Positions 11,125 to 18,730 of a stretch of 64,000 bases of DNA are shown in pieces. The stretch covers positions 44,240-108,239 of the forward strand of contig CAZUQJ010000001.1 of the NCBI GenBank assembly GCA_964622505.1. Reading direction: 5' to 3'. This DNA comes from an uncultured Candidatus Saccharibacteria bacterium (GTDB lineage Bacteria; Patescibacteriota; Minisyncoccia; Phycocordibacterales; UBA9973). The notes beneath the pieces were generated by a model that saw nothing but the letters and a program-made list of their open reading frames with translations, had not been told where the DNA came from and searched no databases. A program made the position numbers and the translations under genes. The first letter of the stretch is position 1; the number at the start of each line of letters is the position of its first letter.

Positions 11125-11607
11125 ATGGATACAGTTAATCAAACTTTTCTGATCGATGGTGGCCCCGCATTTGTGCGCCATGGCGTTTCTACTCCCGTGC
11201 TTCTTCATAAATATTATGATGAAGGTGAATGGAGTCCTAATCTTTTTTCTCTTGAAATTATTAAAGACAAAGAAGAATTTCTAAATATAAGGCGTGGTGC
11301 AAATTGCCATGCCCTGGAATTCTATTTCAGAAACCAGAAACTAACACGAGAGCTTGTTGCCAATTCAGGAGTTACAAAAATCATTATTGTGGGTACTGTT
11401 TTCAGTCTGCATGGGGATCCTCATTATGAGGTTTTAAACCTTATTCCAAATGCGCATGTCGACAAGGAATGGTTTTATGGTTTTGAAACTGCTGATGCAA
11501 TATTACAATCAAAGGAACTGGTGGCCGTATTGTTAACAAATCAAACACTGTCTATTATCAACTTGTCAGATTCAGATGTTGTAACTGTGGGTCATGGAAC
11601 TTGCTGA
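11125..11607 (+). CDS. hypothetical protein
   Basis: 160-aa ORF ending in TGA, with GCCCCAGT/ACTGGGGC terminator at 11633-11665. Confidence 0.4.
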   Translation: MDTVNQTFLIDGGPAFVRHGVSTPVLLHKYYDEGEWSPNLFSLEIIKDKEEFLNIRRGANCHALEFYFRNQKLTRELVANSGVTKIIIVGTVFSLHGDPHYEVLNLIPNAHVDKEWFYGFETADAILQSKELVAVLLTNQTLSIINLSDSDVVTVGHGTC

Positions 11608-11736
11608 GTATTCAAAAATTTTACAAAATCTTGCCCCAGTATATTTTACTGGGGCATTATTTATTGTCGTAATGTACCATAGATTATTGTCTTTTTGTTG
11701 TTTTTAGTGTACTTTATATCTATATCTACTATATAT

Positions 11737-11807
11737 TGGGGTATCGTCTAATGGTAGGACAGAGGCCTTTGAAGCCTTTAATCGAGGTTCGAATCCTTGT
11801 ACCCCAG
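11737..11807 (+). tRNA. tRNA-Gln (anticodon UUG)
   Basis: Cloverleaf by hand: acceptor UGGGGUA/UACCCCA, D-arm GUC-UAAUGGUAG-GAC, anticodon arm GAGGC-CUUUGAA-GCCUU (UUG), T-arm CGAGG-UUCGAAU-CCUUG, discriminator G, no encoded CCA; close to E. coli tRNA-Gln architecture. Confidence 0.85.
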
Positions 11808-12019
11808 CAAAAAAGCGAAGCGTTTATGGGGTAAGAAAGCAAACAAGTTTGCTTTCGACAAGGATTCGAAGACCTTGAGTATATCGCACGCATCTGCCAT
11901 CGGCAGAGCGTACGATACGAAAGGTGTACTGATCCTGTAAGGATCGAAATTCCTTGTACTCTGAGGATAAAATAACTAGCTTATTTTATCCTCCATAAAA
12001 TGCTAGAATATTGGGATAC

Positions 12020-13459
12020 ATGAAAAACTTGGTAGAAATTGTTGGCGATATCGAGCCTTTGAACATAAAGGGCTCTTTGGACGTATTGATTTCCTCTGTT
12101 TCTATCAATTCTGCGCTTGTAGTTCCCGATGCACTTTTTATTGCTATTGTCGGCGCCCAAGTTGATGGCCATGATTTTATTGACGACGCAATCAGTAAAG
12201 GTGCGAAAGTTATTGTCTACGAAAAAGATATAGAATTCAAAGATGGGATTGTATATATCAAAGTTGCTGATAGTCATGAAGCATCGGGTAAGATTGCCAA
12301 TGCTTATTATGATTATCCTTCAAAAAAATTGAAAATTATTGGTGTCACAGGAACAAATGGCAAGACAACTATTGTTACACTACTTCACCAACTGTTTCGC
12401 AACCTTGGATACAAAGCGGGCATGATCGGGACAGTAGCAAATAAAATCAATGACGATAGTGTTGAAGCAGTCCGCACTACTCCCGACCCGATCACACTCA
12501 ACGAAACTTTGGCTCAAATGGTAGAAGCGGGTTGTGGGTATTGCTTTATGGAAGTTAGCTCTCATGCGGTAGCGCTCAAACGTATCGAAGGATTGGAATT
12601 TGTAGGTGGCGTATTTACCAACCTCACGCATGACCATCTGGATTTCCACAACACTATAGAAGAATATGCAAAAGCCAAACAAGATTTTTTCACTAGTTTA
12701 CCATCCACAAGTTTCGCACTTTCAAATATGGACAGTGACAAGGGAGAGTTTATGCTGGAATCTACAAAAGCAAAAAAGTATTTTTATTCAAGAGAAAAGC
12801 CTGCAGATTTTACTGGCGCAGTAGACACCAAATTGATAGGTGACTTCAATCAATCAAATATATTGGCTGTACTTGGTACGGCAGTATTGCTAGGCGTAGA
12901 CGAGAAAGTAGCGAGAGAGGAGATCAAAAAGCTTGATCCAGCGCCAGGCAGATTTATATCATGGACCAGTCCGACTGGTACAATTGGGATTGTAGACTAT
13001 TCACATACCCCAGATGCTTTGGAAAATGTGTTAAAAACAATCCAAAATCTTGTAGGTGTCCAACACCTACATAAGGAGGTGTCCAACACCTACAAGCCCA
13101 AAGTGATTACGGTTGTGGGTTGTGGTGGTGACCGAGATAAAGCAAAGCGTCCAGTGATGGCTAAAATTGCTTATAATATGAGTGATATTGTGATCCTGAC
13201 TTCAGACAATCCCCGTAGTGAAAATCCTCAAACGATTTTGGTTGAGATGCAAAAAGGTCTACCAGAAAATTATCAGAACAAAGTACAAATAATAGAAGAT
13301 CGGCACTTGGCAATCCAAAAAGCATGCGAACTCGCAAAAAGTGGTGACTACATATTACTTGCTGGCAAAGGTCATGAAAATTACCAAGAGGTAAATGGAG
13401 TCAAAACGCATTTTGATGATATGGAAGAATTAAAAAAGTGTTTTGATAAAATGATATAA
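12020..13459 (+). CDS. murE: UDP-N-acetylmuramoyl-L-alanyl-D-glutamate--2,6-diaminopimelate ligase
   Basis: Mur ligase motifs IGVTGTNGKTT, DYSHTPDALENVL, VGCGGDRDKAKRP, DNPRSENP; ORF track start 12011 is TTG, first ATG at 12020. Confidence 0.9.
   Translation: MKNLVEIVGDIEPLNIKGSLDVLISSVSINSALVVPDALFIAIVGAQVDGHDFIDDAISKGAKVIVYEKDIEFKDGIVYIKVADSHEASGKIANAYYDYPSKKLKIIGVTGTNGKTTIVTLLHQLFRNLGYKAGMIGTVANKINDDSVEAVRTTPDPITLNETLAQMVEAGCGYCFMEVSSHAVALKRIEGLEFVGGVFTNLTHDHLDFHNTIEEYAKAKQDFFTSLPSTSFALSNMDSDKGEFMLESTKAKKYFYSREKPADFTGAVDTKLIGDFNQSNILAVLGTAVLLGVDEKVAREEIKKLDPAPGRFISWTSPTGTIGIVDYSHTPDALENVLKTIQNLVGVQHLHKEVSNTYKPKVITVVGCGGDRDKAKRPVMAKIAYNMSDIVILTSDNPRSENPQTILVEMQKGLPENYQNKVQIIEDRHLAIQKACELAKSGDYILLAGKGHENYQEVNGVKTHFDDMEELKKCFDKMI
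13049..13096 (+). repeat. 48-bp twin-hairpin palindromic element inserted in-frame in murE (copy 1 of 2)
   Basis: CTTGTAGGTGTCCAACACCTAC-ATAAGGAG-GTGTCCAACACCTACAAG encodes VGVQHLHKEVSNTY, an insertion relative to the usual MurE linker before GCGGDRD; near-identical copy in atpG at 61228-61275. Confidence 0.6.
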
Positions 13460-13466
13460 TATTTTT

Positions 13467-15206
13467 ATGGACAAAATTTGTACACGATGCAAAACAGAAT
13501 TTACCATAACAGAAAATGATACTATATTTTATCAGAAAATTTCTGTGCCACCACCTACACTTTGCCCCAACTGTCGTTGTGCGCGACGCATGGTCCACCG
13601 CAACGAGCGTAATTTGTATAAAAGAAAATGTGACGTCACGGGCAAAGATATTATATCGATCTATCGAGCAGATTGTCCGTATACTGTTTGTGATAAGGAA
13701 TACTATTTTTCTGATTCATTTGACCCATTCGCGTACGGAGTAGCCTACAATCCCGACCTGACCTTTTTTGAACAATTTTATGCATTTGCAAAGAAAGTTC
13801 CAATGTCGTCTCTTTTTATTCAAACCTCAGAGAATTGTGAATACAATCAAGACATGAGTGGTGCGTTGAATTGCTATCTTTGCTCGCGTACACACGACTC
13901 TACAAATATGTTTTATACCTATCGAGGAAACAAATCGAGTGACTGCATTGATTGTTTTCAAGTAGTAGAAGCATCAGAATTTCTGTATGAATGTGTGAAT
14001 TCTTCGAATTCAAGCAATAGCCAGTTTTTGCATTCATGTGATAAATGTTCGGATTCAAGTTTCCTATACAACTGCGTTGGGTGTATTGATTGTTTTATGT
14101 GTACTGATCAGCGAGGCAAGCAATGCTACTATAAAAACCAGCAATACTCTCGCGAAGAATACAAAAAAATACTAGATTCATATAATCTCTCAACATATGA
14201 GGGACAACAAAGAGCGCTTGCAGAATTTGAAGCATTTTTGAAAAAGTTTCCTCGAAAGAATTTGAACGTAATTCGATCAGACAATGTTTCGGGGGATGGT
14301 ATTTTTGATTCAAAAGATTGTAATAATGTTTTTAATGTGCGAACGACAGAAAATTGCTCATATATATGGGACTCTATGAGGTACAAGGATTCGATGGATG
14401 CGTATTCTGGAGCAAGTGTTGAGCTTGTCTATGAAGCAACGGCCACTACTAATCACAGTAGCAATTGTCATTTTTGTGTTCGAATATATAAAGGGAGTCG
14501 TGACTGTGAATATAGTTGGTTTTTGAGAAATTGTTCAAATTGTTTCGGTTGCGTCAGCCTCAAGGATAAAGAATATTGTATTTTTAATATACAGTATTCA
14601 AAGGAAGAGTATTTTTCTATTCTCGAACAAATAAAAAGTAAAATGATTGCCGACGGTGAGTATGGAGAATTTTTCCCTTTCTATACTTCGCCATTTCCAT
14701 ACAACGACACCGTTGCGCAAGAATATTTTCCGCTTGATAAAAAAAGTGCAGTAGACCATGGACTGCAATGGGGTGAAATGGAAGAGAAAAAGCATCAAAC
14801 AACAATGACAGCACTCGAATTACCAGATGCTATTGCTGATGTAACTGATGCAATTTTACGAGAAACAATTGCGTGTGAGCACGACGGGGAATGTGCCCAT
14901 GGCTGCACAAAAGCATTTCGGATTGTGGCCGATGAATTGGCATATTATAGGAGGAAAGGCATACCACTGCCGAAAAAATGCCCAAACTGTCGATACTATC
15001 GCCGGCTTGAGTACCGTAACCCCACTCGCTTACGTGATATAGTATGTATGTGCCGAGGAGCGGAAATGGCCAATGGGGTATATAAAAATACAGTAGCGCA
15101 TGCTCATGGAGACAGTCCTTGTGGCGAGAATGTACAGACTACGATAAAAGAAGAGGGAGGATTTATAATCTATTGCGATCAATGCTATAAAAAAGAAGTA
15201 TTTTAA
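13467..15206 (+). CDS. Cys-rich protein with N- and C-terminal zinc-ribbon modules and internal CxxC repeats (function unknown)
   Basis: N-term CTRCKTEF..FYQK..PPPTLCPNCR and C-term C..GCTKAFRIV..YYRRKGIPLPKKCPNCRYYRR are internal duplicates; centre holds >10 CxxC-x(5-10)-aromatic repeats; sits between murE and murD. Confidence 0.5.
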   Translation: MDKICTRCKTEFTITENDTIFYQKISVPPPTLCPNCRCARRMVHRNERNLYKRKCDVTGKDIISIYRADCPYTVCDKEYYFSDSFDPFAYGVAYNPDLTFFEQFYAFAKKVPMSSLFIQTSENCEYNQDMSGALNCYLCSRTHDSTNMFYTYRGNKSSDCIDCFQVVEASEFLYECVNSSNSSNSQFLHSCDKCSDSSFLYNCVGCIDCFMCTDQRGKQCYYKNQQYSREEYKKILDSYNLSTYEGQQRALAEFEAFLKKFPRKNLNVIRSDNVSGDGIFDSKDCNNVFNVRTTENCSYIWDSMRYKDSMDAYSGASVELVYEATATTNHSSNCHFCVRIYKGSRDCEYSWFLRNCSNCFGCVSLKDKEYCIFNIQYSKEEYFSILEQIKSKMIADGEYGEFFPFYTSPFPYNDTVAQEYFPLDKKSAVDHGLQWGEMEEKKHQTTMTALELPDAIADVTDAILRETIACEHDGECAHGCTKAFRIVADELAYYRRKGIPLPKKCPNCRYYRRLEYRNPTRLRDIVCMCRGAEMANGVYKNTVAHAHGDSPCGENVQTTIKEEGGFIIYCDQCYKKEVF

Positions 15207-16619
15207 ATGAAAAATTACAAACAACAATTTAAAGGGAAGAAGATAACTATTATGGGGCTGGGGCTTCTGGGTCGGGGGCTTGGGTATACCAAGTTCCTAG
15301 CCGAGTGTGGTGCGGATTTGATCGTCACTGATTTAAAACCTGAGAAAGAATTAGAAACTTCAATTAAACAATTACGAAAATTCGCAAACCCCGAAGGAAA
15401 GAGTACTTCCAACGGGGCAAGTATACAGTTTGTTTTGGGGGAGCATAGATTGCAGGATTTCAAAAACAGAGACATGATTATCAAAAATCCTGGTATACCA
15501 ATGGACTCTATCTATATAAAGGAAGCTCGCAAAAACAATATTCCGATAGAGATGGATGTATCATTTTTTGCTAAATGTGCGCCGGATGTAATGATTATTG
15601 GAGTAACTGGCACTCGTGGTAAGAGTATGACAACAATGCTGATTCACGACATTTTGAAGCAAAATGAAAAATTCTTAAAGCATCCTTCGACTACGCTCAG
15701 GACAAAAAAACCTACAGTTTTTTTGGGTGGGAACATTCGTGGAGTTGCGACACTGCCATTACTGAAGCAAGTACAGCCAGGCGATATCCTTGTGTGTGAG
15801 CTTGATTCATGGCAACTGCAAGGCTTTGGTGAGGCGAAACTCTCGCCACAGGTATCTGTTTTTACGACTTTTATGCGTGACCATATGAATTATTACAAAG
15901 ATGATGTGGATATGTATTTTGAAGATAAGGCCAACATTTTTAAGTATCAGAAAAAAGGTGATGCATTAGTTATCTTGCCTAAGATGAAAAAATTGATCAA
16001 GAAAAATATAAAAAGTAAATTGATCATTGCCAATAGTAAAGACGTAGAGAAGTTTGATTTTGTTGTGCCTGGTGTTCACCAACGCGAAAACTTGGCTTGT
16101 GCATTTGAGGTGGCAAAGATTTTCGGCATTCCGGAATCAAAAATAAAATCTGCAGTTAAAAATTTCAAAGGAGTTGAAGGCCGATTGCAATACGTAAAAA
16201 CAGTTAAAGGGGTCAAAATTTACAATGACAACAATGCAACAACTCCCGAAGCAACAATAGCAGGGCTTGAAGCATTGTCTTCTGCAAGGTTTGACCTAGC
16301 GGAGAAAAAAATAATCTTGATTGCTGGTGGTTCGGATAAAAAGTTGGATACCAAAATACTAGCGAATGCAGTAAATAAGGATTGTAAAGAAGCCATATTT
16401 TTAAAAGGTACTGGCACAGAAAGTTTTTTAACGAATAACACATTGCGAATTCCTACAGAAATTGTAGGTAACTTAAAAGACGCAATAGCTTATGCACTGA
16501 AAGTTGCCAAGAAAGGTGATATAATCTTATTTTCACCAGCATTTGCTTCATTTGGCTTGTTTAATAATGAATATGAGCGCAATGACGAATTTATGAAAAT
16601 TGTTAAAAAACTGAAATAG
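15207..16619 (+). CDS. murD: UDP-N-acetylmuramoylalanine--D-glutamate ligase
   Basis: N-terminal Rossmann GLGLLGRG, Mur ligase P-loop IGVTGTRGKSMTT, HQRENLACA, GVEGRLQY motifs. Confidence 0.9.
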   Translation: MKNYKQQFKGKKITIMGLGLLGRGLGYTKFLAECGADLIVTDLKPEKELETSIKQLRKFANPEGKSTSNGASIQFVLGEHRLQDFKNRDMIIKNPGIPMDSIYIKEARKNNIPIEMDVSFFAKCAPDVMIIGVTGTRGKSMTTMLIHDILKQNEKFLKHPSTTLRTKKPTVFLGGNIRGVATLPLLKQVQPGDILVCELDSWQLQGFGEAKLSPQVSVFTTFMRDHMNYYKDDVDMYFEDKANIFKYQKKGDALVILPKMKKLIKKNIKSKLIIANSKDVEKFDFVVPGVHQRENLACAFEVAKIFGIPESKIKSAVKNFKGVEGRLQYVKTVKGVKIYNDNNATTPEATIAGLEALSSARFDLAEKKIILIAGGSDKKLDTKILANAVNKDCKEAIFLKGTGTESFLTNNTLRIPTEIVGNLKDAIAYALKVAKKGDIILFSPAFASFGLFNNEYERNDEFMKIVKKLK

Positions 16620-16620
16620 T

Positions 16621-17406
16621 ATGGAAAAATTTTCTATTACAAATCGATATGGTTTAAAAATAGTTGGGGAATTACATATCCCAGTAAATGTTGCTGGGCT
16701 TGCTTTTGTCGAGCATGGGCTCGGTGGTACTAAGGAACAACCAAATACCATGGCCATGGTATATACATTGTTTGCCAATAATTATATTGTTGTGAATTTT
16801 GATGCGACAAATTCTATTGGCGAAAGTGGGGGTAAATATGAAAATGCCACAATGCAATTGCATTATGAAGACCTTGTGGATGTTATAGCTTGGGCAAAGG
16901 GGCAAGATTGGTATAAAGAACCTTTTGTTCTGGCAGGACATAGTTTGGGTGGATATGCAGTGGCTCAATATGCTGAAGATTACCCTGAGCAAGTTAAAGC
17001 CGTATTTCCATTTGCCCTAGTTGTGTCAGGAGCATTGAGTTATAAAAAATACGAACAGTTTAAATCTGAAGAATTTAAAAGTTGGAAAGAAACAGGGTGG
17101 AAAGAAGAAATGAGTACATCAAAACCAGGATTTATAAAAAGATTGCCATGGTCTCATATGGAAGAAAGGTTACAGCATGATTTGTTATCACACGCATCGA
17201 AGCTAAAGATGCCGATACTTTTTGTAATAGGAGAAAACGATACCTCTTGCCCGCCAGAACATCAAAAAGTGTTATATGATATACTACCTGAAATTACAGA
17301 CAAAGAGTTCCATGTTGTAAAAGGTGCACCGCATACGTTTAAAGAAGCTCATGACATAGAAGAATTAAAAAATATTTTCGATACATGGCTTAAGAAATTA
17401 AAATAA
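16621..17406 (+). CDS. alpha/beta-hydrolase fold protein (esterase/dienelactone-hydrolase-like)
   Basis: Nucleophile elbow GHSLGG, downstream acid/His residues; 261 aa. Confidence 0.6.
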   Translation: MEKFSITNRYGLKIVGELHIPVNVAGLAFVEHGLGGTKEQPNTMAMVYTLFANNYIVVNFDATNSIGESGGKYENATMQLHYEDLVDVIAWAKGQDWYKEPFVLAGHSLGGYAVAQYAEDYPEQVKAVFPFALVVSGALSYKKYEQFKSEEFKSWKETGWKEEMSTSKPGFIKRLPWSHMEERLQHDLLSHASKLKMPILFVIGENDTSCPPEHQKVLYDILPEITDKEFHVVKGAPHTFKEAHDIEELKNIFDTWLKKLK

Positions 17407-17410
17407 AATT

Positions 17411-18730
17411 ATGGAAGATTTAGATTTAACACAAATAAAACACATTCACTTTATCGGCATTGGCGGGATTGGTATCTCCGCTCTGGCTCGTATGATGCTC
17501 TATGAAGAGAAAAAGGTTAGTGGGCAGGATATGCAAGATTCGGAAATTGTCGCAGAATTAAAAAAATCCGGCGCCAAGATCACCATAGGGCAATCGCTCG
17601 ATGCTATTCCAAAAAGTACAGACTTGATCGTGTACACTATTGCTATTGAGAACTATGATCCAGAGCTTTTTGACGTATTGAAAAACCAAGAGGACATTCC
17701 GATCCGATCGTACCCAGAGATGCTCAATATTGTGACTCGTGGTAAGTACACTATCGCGATCTCTGGTACTCATGGCAAGACGACCACTACAGGTATGATC
17801 GCCAAAGTCCTCGGAGACACAGGCAACGATCCAACAGTCATAGTTGGTAGTGTGTTGACGGACATGCATACAAATTTCCTCGCGGGCAAGAGCCAGTATT
17901 TCGTCGTTGAGGCGTGCGAATACCGCCGATCATTTCTCAATATCAATCCAAACATACTCGTGATTACCAATATTGATGCCGACCACTTGGATTATTATAA
18001 AGATATGGATGATATAAAAAGTGCTTTTCGAGAGCTTGCATTGAAGGTTCCAAAAAGTGGCTTTGTCATTTGTAATCCAACCGATCCGCATATTATTGAT
18101 GTTGTGGCAGGTATCGAAGCGCAGGTTGTAGATTACGAAAGATTTTTCGATGAAAATTTGGAGCTTACATTGCCAGGAATTCACAACAAGCAAAATGCAG
18201 CTTGTGCGACTGCTGTTGGTGTATCGATAGAAATCGACCCTGAAAATATCAAAGAATCCTTGGAGCAATTTGCAGGCGCGGCGCGACGATTTGAATATAA
18301 AGGCGAGATGAAAAGTGGGACAAAGATCTATGATGACTATGCGCACCATCCGACCGAGATTGTGGCATCACTCCAAGGATTTCGAGAATTGTATTCCAAA
18401 GAAGACGGATGGCGCCTGACGATAGTATTCCAGCCACATTTGTTTAGCCGAACCCGAGCACTACTCGAAGATTTTGCAAAAAGTTTCGTTGATGCTGACG
18501 AGGTAGTACTCTTACCGATCTACTATGCACGCGAAGAAGATGACGGCACTATATCGTCGGAGCTATTGGCTGAAAAAATTACAGAGAGTGGGACTGAAGC
18601 CAAAGCATTTATTGATTTTGAAACTGCAGAAGAATATATCCGGACACTTGCGCTTGATGATAAAAATATACTAATCACAATGGGTGCCGGCGAAGCTTTT
18701 AAAATAGGAGATGCATTAATCCAAAAATAA
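17411..18730 (+). CDS. murC: UDP-N-acetylmuramate--L-alanine ligase
   Basis: HIHFIGIGGIGISALA, ISGTHGKTTTTGM, DADHLDYY motifs. Confidence 0.9.
   Translation: MEDLDLTQIKHIHFIGIGGIGISALARMMLYEEKKVSGQDMQDSEIVAELKKSGAKITIGQSLDAIPKSTDLIVYTIAIENYDPELFDVLKNQEDIPIRSYPEMLNIVTRGKYTIAISGTHGKTTTTGMIAKVLGDTGNDPTVIVGSVLTDMHTNFLAGKSQYFVVEACEYRRSFLNINPNILVITNIDADHLDYYKDMDDIKSAFRELALKVPKSGFVICNPTDPHIIDVVAGIEAQVVDYERFFDENLELTLPGIHNKQNAACATAVGVSIEIDPENIKESLEQFAGAARRFEYKGEMKSGTKIYDDYAHHPTEIVASLQGFRELYSKEDGWRLTIVFQPHLFSRTRALLEDFAKSFVDADEVVLLPIYYAREEDDGTISSELLAEKITESGTEAKAFIDFETAEEYIRTLALDDKNILITMGAGEAFKIGDALIQK

Follow-up and report, generated by a model that had tools for sequence, protein, structure and literature searches.

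The stretch of DNA analysed here (the window; 64,000 nucleotides) carries an open reading frame (ORF) tightly packed between two Mur-ligase genes, within a co-directional string of genes that includes the following features.

11632-11656, + strand: 10-bp GC-rich hairpin (consensus match only)
11737-11808, + strand: tRNA-Gln, between the hairpin and the promoter-like site (consensus match only)
11944-11973, + strand: promoter-like site (consensus match only)
12011..13459, + strand: murE (NF001126, 2e-166)
13467..15206, + strand: gene for the 579-aa, predicted multi-zinc protein (stop codon TAA, 15204-15206)
15207..16619, + strand: murD (TIGR01087, 6e-88)
16621-17406, + strand: alpha/beta hydrolase, downstream in the same gene string
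17411-18730, + strand: murC, in the same gene string after the alpha/beta hydrolase

The 579-aa Cys-rich ORF at 13467..15206 (+) is present as originally described and encodes 40 cysteines, which make up 6.9% of the protein, as against 0.78% when the window's 46 other large ORFs are taken together; a search of the window for a second copy of the gene found none. The earlier view that the product has neither a signal peptide nor a transmembrane (TM) segment is borne out, as none is apparent and the maximum 19-residue Kyte-Doolittle hydropathy is 0.94. The gene starts 7 nt after the stop of murE, whose true start is likely the ATG at 12020 (the murE called in L001 is 479 aa long), and its TAA directly abuts the murD ATG (15207), so that the overlap initially reported between this stop and the start of murD is in fact a 0-nt spacer. 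Similarly, the proposed location in a canonical Mur-ligase operon holds for the tight packing between murE and murD but not for the gene order, which is not that of a canonical dcw cluster because murF and mraY are absent. On the + strand, no terminator-like site is found at the gene boundaries from 12011 to 18730, and the sole hairpin (16680-16698) falls within the alpha/beta hydrolase ORF; since no such site separates murE from murC, it stays plausible that the gene is co-transcribed and coupled with its mur neighbours. The upstream boundary of the putative transcription unit likely lies at 11632..11973, a region that comprises the hairpin, tRNA-Gln and the promoter-like site.

Profile and alignment comparisons divide the predicted protein into seven parts, all encoded on the + strand.

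13467..13634, + strand: N-terminal treble-clef finger, then basic helix (residues 1-56; ligands C5, C8, C33, C36)
13635..13763, + strand: second finger, degenerate, plus linker (residues 57-99); corresponds to the C-terminal tail finger
13764..14186, + strand: repeat domain M1 (residues 100-240) with some nine units of 12 residues, then a cap, a hairpin and a helix
14187..14654, + strand: repeat domain M2 (residues 241-396), an M1 duplicate that lost most Cys
14655..14870, + strand: conserved motif and variable acidic linker (residues 397-468)
14871..15044, + strand: C-terminal treble-clef finger with basic helix (residues 469-526; C470, C480, C505, C508)
15045..15203, + strand: tail finger, LIM-like/PF23477-like (residues 527-579; C527, C552, C570, C573 and H545/H547)

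This layout, by homology a PF13451 plus degenerate finger, M1, M2, the motif with its acidic linker, and a PF13451-type plus LIM/PF23477-like tail finger, extends the original structural prediction (terminal zinc modules, Cys-rich middle, soluble protein packed between murE and murD), which proves largely right. Each end of the protein is, as judged by profile comparison, a PF13451-type treble-clef finger followed by a second finger, and the two ends are homologous, as had been suggested for the terminal zinc ribbons: residues 8-55 and 480-527 share 35% identity, and hhalign pairs the N module (7-80) with the C module (479-574) with a probability of 99.7% (E 8e-26). These hhalign module and domain comparisons, as well as the conservation figures reported below, derive from a 198-member family alignment. 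PF13451 (zf_Tbcl) scores at both ends, with 26.9 bits for the N-terminal 100 aa (residues 4-41; cut-off 24) and 18.1 bits (E 0.003), under the 24-bit cut-off, for the C-terminal end; the full-length protein reaches only 22.9 bits against the 24-bit gathering threshold. The putative ligands C5, C8, C33 and C36 are conserved in 96-98% of the 198 members and C470, C480, C505 and C508 at 90-98%, and the helices associated with the two fingers are basic (family median net charge +5 for residues 34-56 and +7 for residues 494-526; +6 and +9, respectively, in the window protein), in a protein that is acidic overall (pI ~6).

Within the match between the N and C modules, residues 55-80 of the degenerate second finger pair with residues 552-574 of the tail; C70 and C75 are unconserved across the family. 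C527, C552, C570 and C573 are conserved at 96-98%, and the tail pattern is found in 186/208 family members. Searches of the PDB by sequence and by profile returned nothing beyond weak LIM-type matches in the tail finger (E 0.1-0.3), and PF23477 (zf_Tbcl_2) matches 3/47 family members at E<=0.01 (best 4.4e-5); the tail of the window protein does not match this model (cut-off 27 bits). The CxxC ... F-Y-x-K ... P-x-x-C-x-x-C-R signature common to both terminal modules is that of the small PF13451 zinc-ribbon proteins of bacteria and phages; phage proteins annotated as "putative zinc-ribbon domain" superpose on the finger (0.6 Å over 40 residues), and in a BFVD search the small finger alone was matched. 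Known PF13451 proteins are single-domain molecules of ~60-160 aa with no assigned function, whereas in the window protein two fingers flank ~370 residues without known relative.

The middle of the protein consists of two tandem copies of a ~140-aa domain made of 12-residue repeats. M1 (101-240) and M2 (251-390) align over 138 columns with an hhalign probability of 100% (E 8e-41) and share 30% identity by BLAST. The strongest periodicities of the region are at lags 12 and 24, and a given position of the repeat is occupied by a small or Cys residue. The M1 cap (C203-x2-C206-x2-C209-x2-C212 ... N224) contains most of the cysteines that are conserved at 78-97% in this domain (C194, C203, C206, C209, C212); in M2, whose cap reads F360-G-C362 ... 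Y-C371-I-x-N374-x-Q-Y-S-x-E-E-Y, only C362 and C371 are conserved family-wide. The middle had been described as carrying more than 10 CxxC-aromatic repeats; it is indeed Cys-rich and repetitive, but this count is slightly overstated, as residues 120-375 include 9 CxxC motifs, some of them overlapping, that belong to the 12-residue repeat. Most middle-region cysteines are restricted to the subfamily of the window protein and replaced by Ser, Val or Leu elsewhere in the family, so that they are more likely to be positions of the solenoid core than metal ligands. The region that follows M2 starts with a G-E-Y-G-E-F-F-P...S-P-F-x-Y-N-x-T-x-A-x-E-Y-F-P motif, of which G400, P404, Y412 and N413 are conserved at 97-99%, and has a net charge of −6 over residues 397-468 (family median; −9 in the window protein).

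The structure-prediction and profile checks recommended with the original prediction, carried out using AlphaFold2 (AF2) and a profile search of the PDB, are in line with this architecture and give no significant fold match for the core. Two AF2 models have overall pLDDT 83 / pTM 0.81 and pLDDT 82.5 / pTM 0.84, respectively; confidence in the solenoid is moderate (pLDDT 57-76 in M1) and the two models disagree in M2. The second model has beta-bridges every 12 residues. Foldseek searches of the PDB with both models found nothing at E<0.1. The weak matches of model 1 (best E 0.26, probability <=0.10) are all left-handed beta-helices, and were not reproduced with model 2 (E >5). Accordingly, a left-handed beta-helix of the hexapeptide type was rejected on the basis of the periodicity, which is 12/24 rather than the 6/18 of such proteins, the lack of a Hexapep match and Foldseek E values of at least 0.26. 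Narrow beta-solenoids with 12-residue coils exist, for example in the Tenebrio molitor antifreeze protein, with which the window protein shares the 12-residue period and the fixed small/Cys position; unlike these solenoids, it is predicted to be cytoplasmic and to contain zinc fingers, so that the resemblance is an analogy at most. Only finger models were matched when the whole protein was searched against Pfam, NCBIfam and PADLOC and six of its segments against Pfam, and the M1/M2 repeat domain has no relative in Pfam, NCBIfam, PADLOC or the PDB.

The abundance of cysteines raises the question of a metal or redox protein, which would either carry an Fe-S cluster on the C-x2-C-x2-C-x2-C run and remote Cys or act as a zinc store or buffer. 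Such a function would agree with the 40 Cys and the conserved central cluster formed by C136, C194, C203, C206, C209, C212, C362 and C371, with the JGI names of three members (two "Fe-S cluster protein YjdI" and one "small metal-binding protein") and with the recurrence of the divalent-ion-tolerance gene cutA1 as an immediate neighbour. We nevertheless regard it as improbable: there is no match to Fer4, radical-SAM or metallothionein models, the Cys spacing is not the ferredoxin CX2CX2CX3C, conservation reaches far beyond the cysteines, and bulk metal storage could hardly account for ten conserved, differentiated paralogues. A ferredoxin-type 4Fe-4S site was rejected for the C203-x2-C206-x2-C209-x2-C212 motif, which does not conform to CX2CX2CX3C(P) and lacks a Fer4 match; the conserved CxxCxxCxxC run could still bind an Fe-S cluster.

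Homology searches recovered 1,557 homologues at E<=1e-3, and the family comprises 3,516 clusters at 50% identity; every named source is a member of the ultrasmall Patescibacteria (CPR). By these criteria, the gene is genuine and conserved and belongs to a very large Patescibacteria-only family, hitherto undescribed, of soluble, zinc-rich proteins, the metal being predicted. The family is absent from the plasmids searched and is represented in IMG/VR by one fragment at a contig edge. Our search of the literature on PF13451-type fingers and on CPR Cys-rich or treble-clef proteins found no description of it. Patescibacteria account for a large part of bacterial diversity; their genomes are tiny, yet many of them devote up to ~20 kb to this one unannotated family.

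The position between murE and murD is kept solely in a 79%-identical relative (L086), which has an extra paralogue and an 8xMP gene at the same place. Relatives at 76, 73, 69, 66, 60 and 48% identity occur in contexts unrelated to mur, namely in paralogue arrays, beside glyoxalase and peptidase M42 genes (with enolase two genes further downstream) or between purL and purQ, and the murE-X-murD arrangement is found in 0/79 other species-level loci. This phylogenetic profile, a check proposed with the original prediction, does not bear out the functional link to the Mur operon that the prediction implied. An accessory or regulatory Mur-ligase subunit, translationally coupled to murD, would fit the 7-nt (murE) and 0-nt (murD) spacers and the conserved position in L086; the scattered contexts of the orthologues, the absence of the murE-X-murD arrangement from all of the other loci profiled and the presence of up to 11 copies per locus, against single-copy Mur ligases, make it a most improbable explanation. 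A component of the Mur pathway was likewise rejected, as the protein has no Mur domain and the linkage is limited to the window genome and L086. The placement is thus probably a lineage-specific accident of gene order within a housekeeping string, and the family is probably unrelated to cell-wall synthesis because elsewhere it is found in paralogue arrays beside an orphan secretion-type ATPase. A single operon context can therefore be a poor guide to function, the mur position being peculiar to one lineage.

Elsewhere, the paralogues of the family stand in tandem, up to 10-11 of them in one co-directional array; there are 1 to 10 copies per ~20-kb locus, 217/221 of them on the same strand, with a median gap of 31 nt between array copies. 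Within a locus, paralogues share a median identity of 39% (maximum 53%), and the nearest relative lies in another genome for 157/165 members; on this sequence evidence, the array paralogues are anciently diverged. The ratio of identity within orthogroups to that between paralogues reaches 1.75-1.81 for the solenoid coils and 1.30 for the C-terminal finger, and stays at 1.0-1.07 for the N-terminal finger, domain caps and tail. The arrays resemble those of Patescibacteria VirB2 pilins, which belong to the same phylum and are also co-directional and of low identity (mean 25%, maximum 54%; PMC12102498); VirB2 proteins are small membrane pilins encoded beside virB4, in contrast to soluble, predicted zinc proteins of ~580 aa encoded beside an orphan VirD4-like ATPase. 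The genes interspersed in the arrays encode PIN, Cas2-like, hibernation factor, cytidylyltransferase, AAA_33 and DUF5674 proteins, as well as three products without Pfam match; they are heterogeneous, and a constant small partner gene inside the arrays was rejected.

That 60-80% identical orthologues are found in at least six contexts, often exactly at gene boundaries within operons, might indicate a gene of a selfish, mobile or defence type that integrates between housekeeping genes, as might a serine recombinase near one pair and the PIN and Cas2-like genes of some arrays. We consider this highly improbable: no genome has near-identical copies, given the 53% maximum, domains of the nuclease, transposase or integrase type are lacking, and plasmids and IMG/VR yielded only the edge fragment mentioned above. 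PADLOC-DB defence models matched neither the window protein nor three paralogues, and the neighbouring ATPase gave only generic HerA/mad8 P-loop matches.

This ATPase, a soluble VirD4/TraD-like protein of the "orphan coupling protein" type, is typically encoded just upstream of the arrays; ahead of it, in turn, are encoded two membrane proteins of small to medium size, T1 (2 TM segments) and a 178-aa single-TM protein. Counted with an ATPase-only HMM, which leaves out the unrelated T1, Walker-A VirD4-like ATPases represent 37/988 neighbour genes and are found in 27/80 family-centred loci, the other 53/80 having none within 10 kb; all 21 adjacent family-ATPase pairs are co-directional. Conversely, the family is present in 61/80 independent, ATPase-centred metagenome loci, a proportion that becomes 31/33 when each flank is at least 3 kb long and 16/18 when it is at least 8 kb. 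A 73%-identical orthologue of the window protein (L087) heads an array of six genes and lies one gene downstream of the ATPase. The window has no VirD4-like ATPase within its 64 kb. At the level of gene neighbourhoods, the family thus has a conserved genomic association with the ATPase, which the window locus itself lacks. The ATPase-centred loci are alike: their ATPases are 73-83% identical, and they share a longer stretch of synteny to which secD and secF belong. Part of the association could therefore reflect inherited gene order rather than function. The members adjacent to the ATPase do not constitute one subfamily, and a single dedicated subfamily was accordingly rejected.

Patescibacteria encode 5,713 VirD4 homologues in 2,918 genomes, so that ~2 per genome are to be expected, and just 148 of these homologues are near virB4; the survey that reported these numbers left the orphan VirD4-like ATPases unexplained (PMC12102498). 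The ATPase studied here has an acidic C-terminal tail, whose tip, EP(L/M)I, is conserved. Known partners of VirD4, TraD and TrwB comprise relaxosome accessory proteins, which dock on the acidic tail of TraD, and effectors with a shared VirD4-binding domain. The family is comparable to such partners and clients in that it neighbours a VirD4/TraD-like P-loop ATPase with an acidic tail and its paralogues share constant terminal modules; it has no sequence or fold similarity to known clients, any interaction is inferred, and the ATPase differs from known coupling-protein (T4CP) systems by being soluble, almost never near virB4 and without a relaxase.

Taken together, these features lead us to favour, tentatively, a family of multi-zinc adaptors that act together with this orphan ATPase of the coupling type. 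Stabilised by zinc, each paralogue would serve as an adaptor, whose constant parts (both finger modules, including the strongly basic helices, as well as the domain caps and the GEYGEFFP...YN motif) may bind a partner that all paralogues have in common. A polyanion would be expected in this place: nucleic acid, whose binding by the PF13451/PF23477 fingers we assume from their charge, or else the acidic tail at the C-terminus of the VirD4-like ATPase. Because the solenoid surfaces are kept within an orthologous lineage and differ between paralogues, we propose that these variable surfaces recognise a paralogue-specific target; an array would then provide a panel of specificities for the ATPase or for a process that it drives.

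[quoted passage not shown] The coupling-protein type of the ATPase, with membrane proteins and secDF upstream, is in line with this possibility, as are the lack of a signal peptide, a PrgI/TraC-like pair 5 kb from one member and the diversified arrays, which are typical of effector or surface repertoires such as that of VirB2 (PMC12102498). We judge it unlikely, considering that the paralogues are old and, far from evolving fast, are under strong constraint, many of their residues being invariant; that at least three or four tightly folded predicted zinc sites would impede translocation of an unfolded chain; and that members lie in housekeeping operons, apparently co-transcribed. Moreover, nearly all Patescibacteria VirD4 homologues are distant from virB4, and the one that was tested is not essential for epibiotic growth (PMC12102498).

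The same basic helices, two per protein, would also suit a housekeeping family of nucleic-acid-binding proteins (RNA/DNA chaperones or processing/assembly factors) that act independently of the ATPase, with one target per paralogue. Paralogue lineages that are ancient and individually conserved, apparent co-transcription with mur, pur and glycolysis genes, a Sigma70_r4 and HARE-HTH protein within the conserved block and a finger in common with small phage and bacterial PF13451 "zinc-ribbon" proteins all point in this direction; yet no RNA- or DNA-binding family is matched besides the generic finger, the protein is acidic overall and the ATPase association is too strong to ignore, making this explanation rather unlikely.

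Within the adaptor interpretation, the solenoid family, the VirD4-like ATPase, T1 and the 178-aa protein may conceivably, if doubtfully, constitute an unrecognised Patescibacteria-specific machine, that is, a split and exapted coupling-protein complex in which the arrays of ancient paralogues would supply a panel of cargo- or target-specific adaptors, through which nucleic acid or proteins would be carried across the membrane or to the host. If true, such a machine would explain why ~2 "orphan" T4CP genes are kept per genome. Being real, ancient, unlike solved structures and tied to orphan VirD4-like ATPases, the family offers a handle on two questions: the role of exapted coupling proteins in these epibionts, and which part of the "dark" proteome underlies their lifestyle. 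In the window genome, the single copy is predicted to be expressed constitutively with the mur genes.

Finally, seven long VirD4-like ATPases contain a CxxC..(V/I/L)(Y/F)CxxC finger motif that resembles the tail of the family and is found in none of the other genes among the 988 neighbours; the two of these ATPases that were scanned with PF23477 match it at 46-54 bits.

The window protein belongs to a family that is real, ancient and phylum-restricted, with a new central domain and terminal PF13451-type fingers. Homologues at E<=1e-3 number 1,557 in a 90%-identity collection, clusters at 50% identity 3,516 (1,342 of them below 1e-30); all members are annotated as hypothetical, and every named source belongs to Patescibacteria (Nomurabacteria, Paceibacterota, Gracilibacteria, Peribacteria, Giovannonibacteria, Liptonbacteria and others). 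A few family loci (e.g. L049, L052 and L061) lie in bins that record titles assign to Gammaproteobacteria or Burkholderiales, and many in bins labelled 'uncultured Candidatus Saccharibacteria'; such labels seem to reflect faulty binning or default taxonomy, not true occurrence outside Paceibacteria-type lineages. Against the rival idea of a selfish or defence gene can be set the absence of the family from plasmids and its near-absence from viral contigs. Neither the searchable literature nor Pfam, NCBIfam, PADLOC or PDB yielded a description of the family; the fingers are of a known but uncharacterised kind, and the core domain, array organisation and ATPase association are new to the record.

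The duplication of putative zinc modules at the two termini is confirmed by 35% identity between residues 8-55 and 480-527 and, on the 198-member family alignment, by an hhalign probability of 99.7% (E 8e-26) between the N module (7-80) and the C module (479-574), a match that takes in a second, degenerate N-terminal finger, counterpart of the C-terminal tail finger. PF13451 (zf_Tbcl) matches the N end above threshold (26.9 bits) and scores 18.1 bits on the C end. The helices after the two fingers carry median net charges of +5 and +7, the protein otherwise being acidic (overall pI about 6). The middle is a tandem duplication (101-240 versus 251-390, hhalign probability 100%, E 8e-41), each copy consisting of 12-residue units (lag 12 strongest, lag 24 also high) closed by a conserved cap, C-x2-C ... 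Y-C-I-x-N-x-Q-Y-S-x-E-E-Y, and a helix. Two rare architectural variants were noted: P0197 (731 aa), possibly an artefact of assembly or gene calling, with a 183-aa N-terminal extension that resembles a GNAT-type acetyltransferase by eye, and P0261 (444 aa), with a single copy of the repeat domain.

Cysteines make up 6.9% of the window protein (40 residues), compared with 0.78% pooled over the 46 other large ORFs of the window and 2.5% in the second-richest. Conserved family-wide are three finger sites (5/8/33/36, 470/480/505/508 and 527/552/570/573) and a central group (136, 194, 203, 206, 209, 212, 362 and 371, plus 55), the latter being the cysteines on which a rival and improbable reading as an Fe-S or metal protein would draw. 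Most relatives have Ser, Val or Leu in place of the middle cysteines 124, 139, 160, 163, 176, 334, 337, 347, 356 and 359, which, judged from the alignment, look like repeat core positions rather than ligands. The approximately 370 central residues have zero sequence or profile matches in Pfam, NCBIfam, PADLOC or PDB. Two AlphaFold2 models (pLDDT 83, pTM 0.81; pLDDT 82.5, pTM 0.84) show the repeats at moderate confidence only; in the second, beta-bridges recur every 12 residues. Foldseek returned no significant PDB match (best E 0.26); the matches of model 1, all left-handed beta-helices at probability <=0.1, are not reproduced by model 2, and in BFVD the finger alone is matched, by small phage zinc-ribbon proteins.

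In the window, the Cys-rich ORF lies between murE and murD as originally described:

11125-11607, 160-aa ORF without Pfam match, followed by the hairpin
11632-11656, strong GC-rich hairpin, perfect 10-bp, scoring as a bidirectional terminator
11737-11808, tRNA-Gln, between the hairpin and murE, just upstream of murE
upstream of the 579-aa ORF, murE (NF001126, 2e-166)
13467-15206, + strand, 579-aa ORF
from ATG at 15207, murD (TIGR01087, 6e-88)
16621-17406, alpha/beta (S33/S9-like) hydrolase, between murD and murC
downstream of the hydrolase, murC (TIGR01082, 1e-125)

The product has no hydrophobic segment (maximum 19-residue hydropathy 0.94), in keeping with the lack of a TM segment noted earlier. 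Seven nucleotides separate the murE stop from its ATG, and its TAA (15204-15206) directly abuts the murD ATG, rather than overlapping it as had been claimed. No terminator-like site lies between genes from murE through murC, and co-transcription of the 579-aa ORF with these genes is therefore plausible. The hydrolase has spacers of 1 nt and 4 nt toward murD and murC; in a 79%-identical relative, too, murD is followed by a serine-hydrolase-like gene (L086 13371-13994), so that this interruption of the mur genes, though unusual, shows local conservation.

The expectation of linkage to murE/murD across the lineage did not hold, and there is no conserved link of the family to mur genes: the murE-X-murD arrangement occurs in 0/79 species-level loci. 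The rival reading of a Mur accessory has on its side the 79%-identical relative, which keeps the murE...murD position, where one more paralogue and a further gene also lie, and against it the relatives of 48-76% identity, all located elsewhere. These lie inside an array of at least five (76%), first of six and one gene after a VirD4-like ATPase (73%, L087), in a pair (69%), in an array of six (66%, L007), and between glyoxalase and peptidase M42, where enolase is found two genes downstream and another four paralogues lie close by (60%, L003). The 48% relative (L005 3038-8527) sits between purL and purQ of a purine-biosynthesis operon, with a 4-nt overlap between its start and the stop of purL; as in the window, the gene is squeezed in among the housekeeping genes of an operon.

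At species-level loci the family forms co-directional arrays, with 217/221 copies on the same strand and a median gap of 31 nt.

Family copies per approximately 20-kb locus
1 copy, 27 loci
2 copies, 19 loci
3 copies, 12 loci
4 copies, 8 loci
5 copies, 5 loci
6 copies, 4 loci
7 copies, 3 loci
8 copies, 1 locus
10 copies, 1 locus

The paralogues are old: copies at one locus share a median of 39% and at most 53% identity, and 157/165 members have their closest relative in another genome. Their differences are concentrated in the solenoid coils formed by the 12-residue repeats, where the ratio of within-orthogroup to between-paralogue identity is 1.75-1.81; it is intermediate in the C-terminal finger (1.30) and about 1.0-1.07 in the constant parts, namely the N-terminal finger, domain caps and tail. 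No consistent small partner gene was seen within arrays; interspersed genes are heterogeneous, including a PIN_3 nuclease, a PaaX_M/Cas2-like protein and a ribosome hibernation factor (examples at L054 9597-9992, L027 7740-8327 and L036 6066-6464). The edge of an integrated element may lie on a Nomurabacteria contig (L088 2585-5457), where a two-copy array is preceded, at a distance of about 3 kb, by an AAA_25 (RepA-like) gene and one for a large serine recombinase.

Clustering of 988 non-family neighbour genes yielded a single dominant family, VirD4/TraD/TrwB-type P-loop ATPases, with 37 genes across 27/80 family-centred loci and 21 immediately adjacent ATPase-family pairs, every one co-directional. 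Reciprocally, when 80 independent metagenome loci were taken with the soluble, approximately 485-aa ATPase at their centre, the family was present in 61 (up to 10-11 copies), in 31/33 of those whose two flanks each reach at least 3 kb and in 16/18 of those whose flanks reach at least 8 kb. Viewed from either side, the neighbourhood association between the family and orphan VirD4-like ATPases is strong; the window itself has no such ATPase within its 64 kb. According to a published survey, Patescibacteria genomes encode about two VirD4 homologues each, almost never near virB4, and their exaptation has been raised as a possibility (PMC12102498). The constant basic fingers might bind a polyanion common to all paralogues, be it nucleic acid or the tail of the ATPase, while paralogue-specific solenoid faces would confer specificity, so that an array would supply a panel of adaptors for an ATPase-driven process. 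On two less probable rival readings, the paralogues would be secreted cargo, or RNA or DNA factors independent of the ATPase.

Inherited synteny may account for some of the association, as the local gene order, secD-secF, a Sigma70_r4 + HARE-HTH protein, a 2-TM protein, a 178-aa 1-TM protein, the ATPase, cutA1 and the array, includes secDF. This block precedes many arrays (L101 8039-11467, L155, L143, L128, L134 and others) and could encode a split membrane-anchored coupling-protein complex; its HARE-HTH protein has about 352 aa, the 2-TM protein (T1, 440-480 aa) lacks a Walker A or Pfam match, and the 178-aa protein, also without Pfam match, carries a GEHMADRL...LWRAH motif.

The soluble ATPase (A3, e.g. 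L035 8274-9722), unusually conserved at 62-83% identity across lineages, ends in a low-complexity acidic tail whose conserved tip, (S)QEAEP(L/M)I, resembles a docking motif. Seven longer VirD4-like ATPases (620-870 aa; L058 14034-16634, L080 2130-4394, L021, L027, L046, L060 and L061) bear directly after the ATPase domain a finger, CxxC..VPFxPxxGRPVYCxxC, that resembles the family tail finger and occurs in no other neighbour gene. PF23477 (zf_Tbcl_2) scores 46-54 bits in the two scanned against Pfam, L058 and L080, and matches 3/47 family members. A long low-complexity region follows this finger, and several of the longer ATPases have a conserved C-terminal tail, EVPEDVL(R/K)K(I/V)LE.
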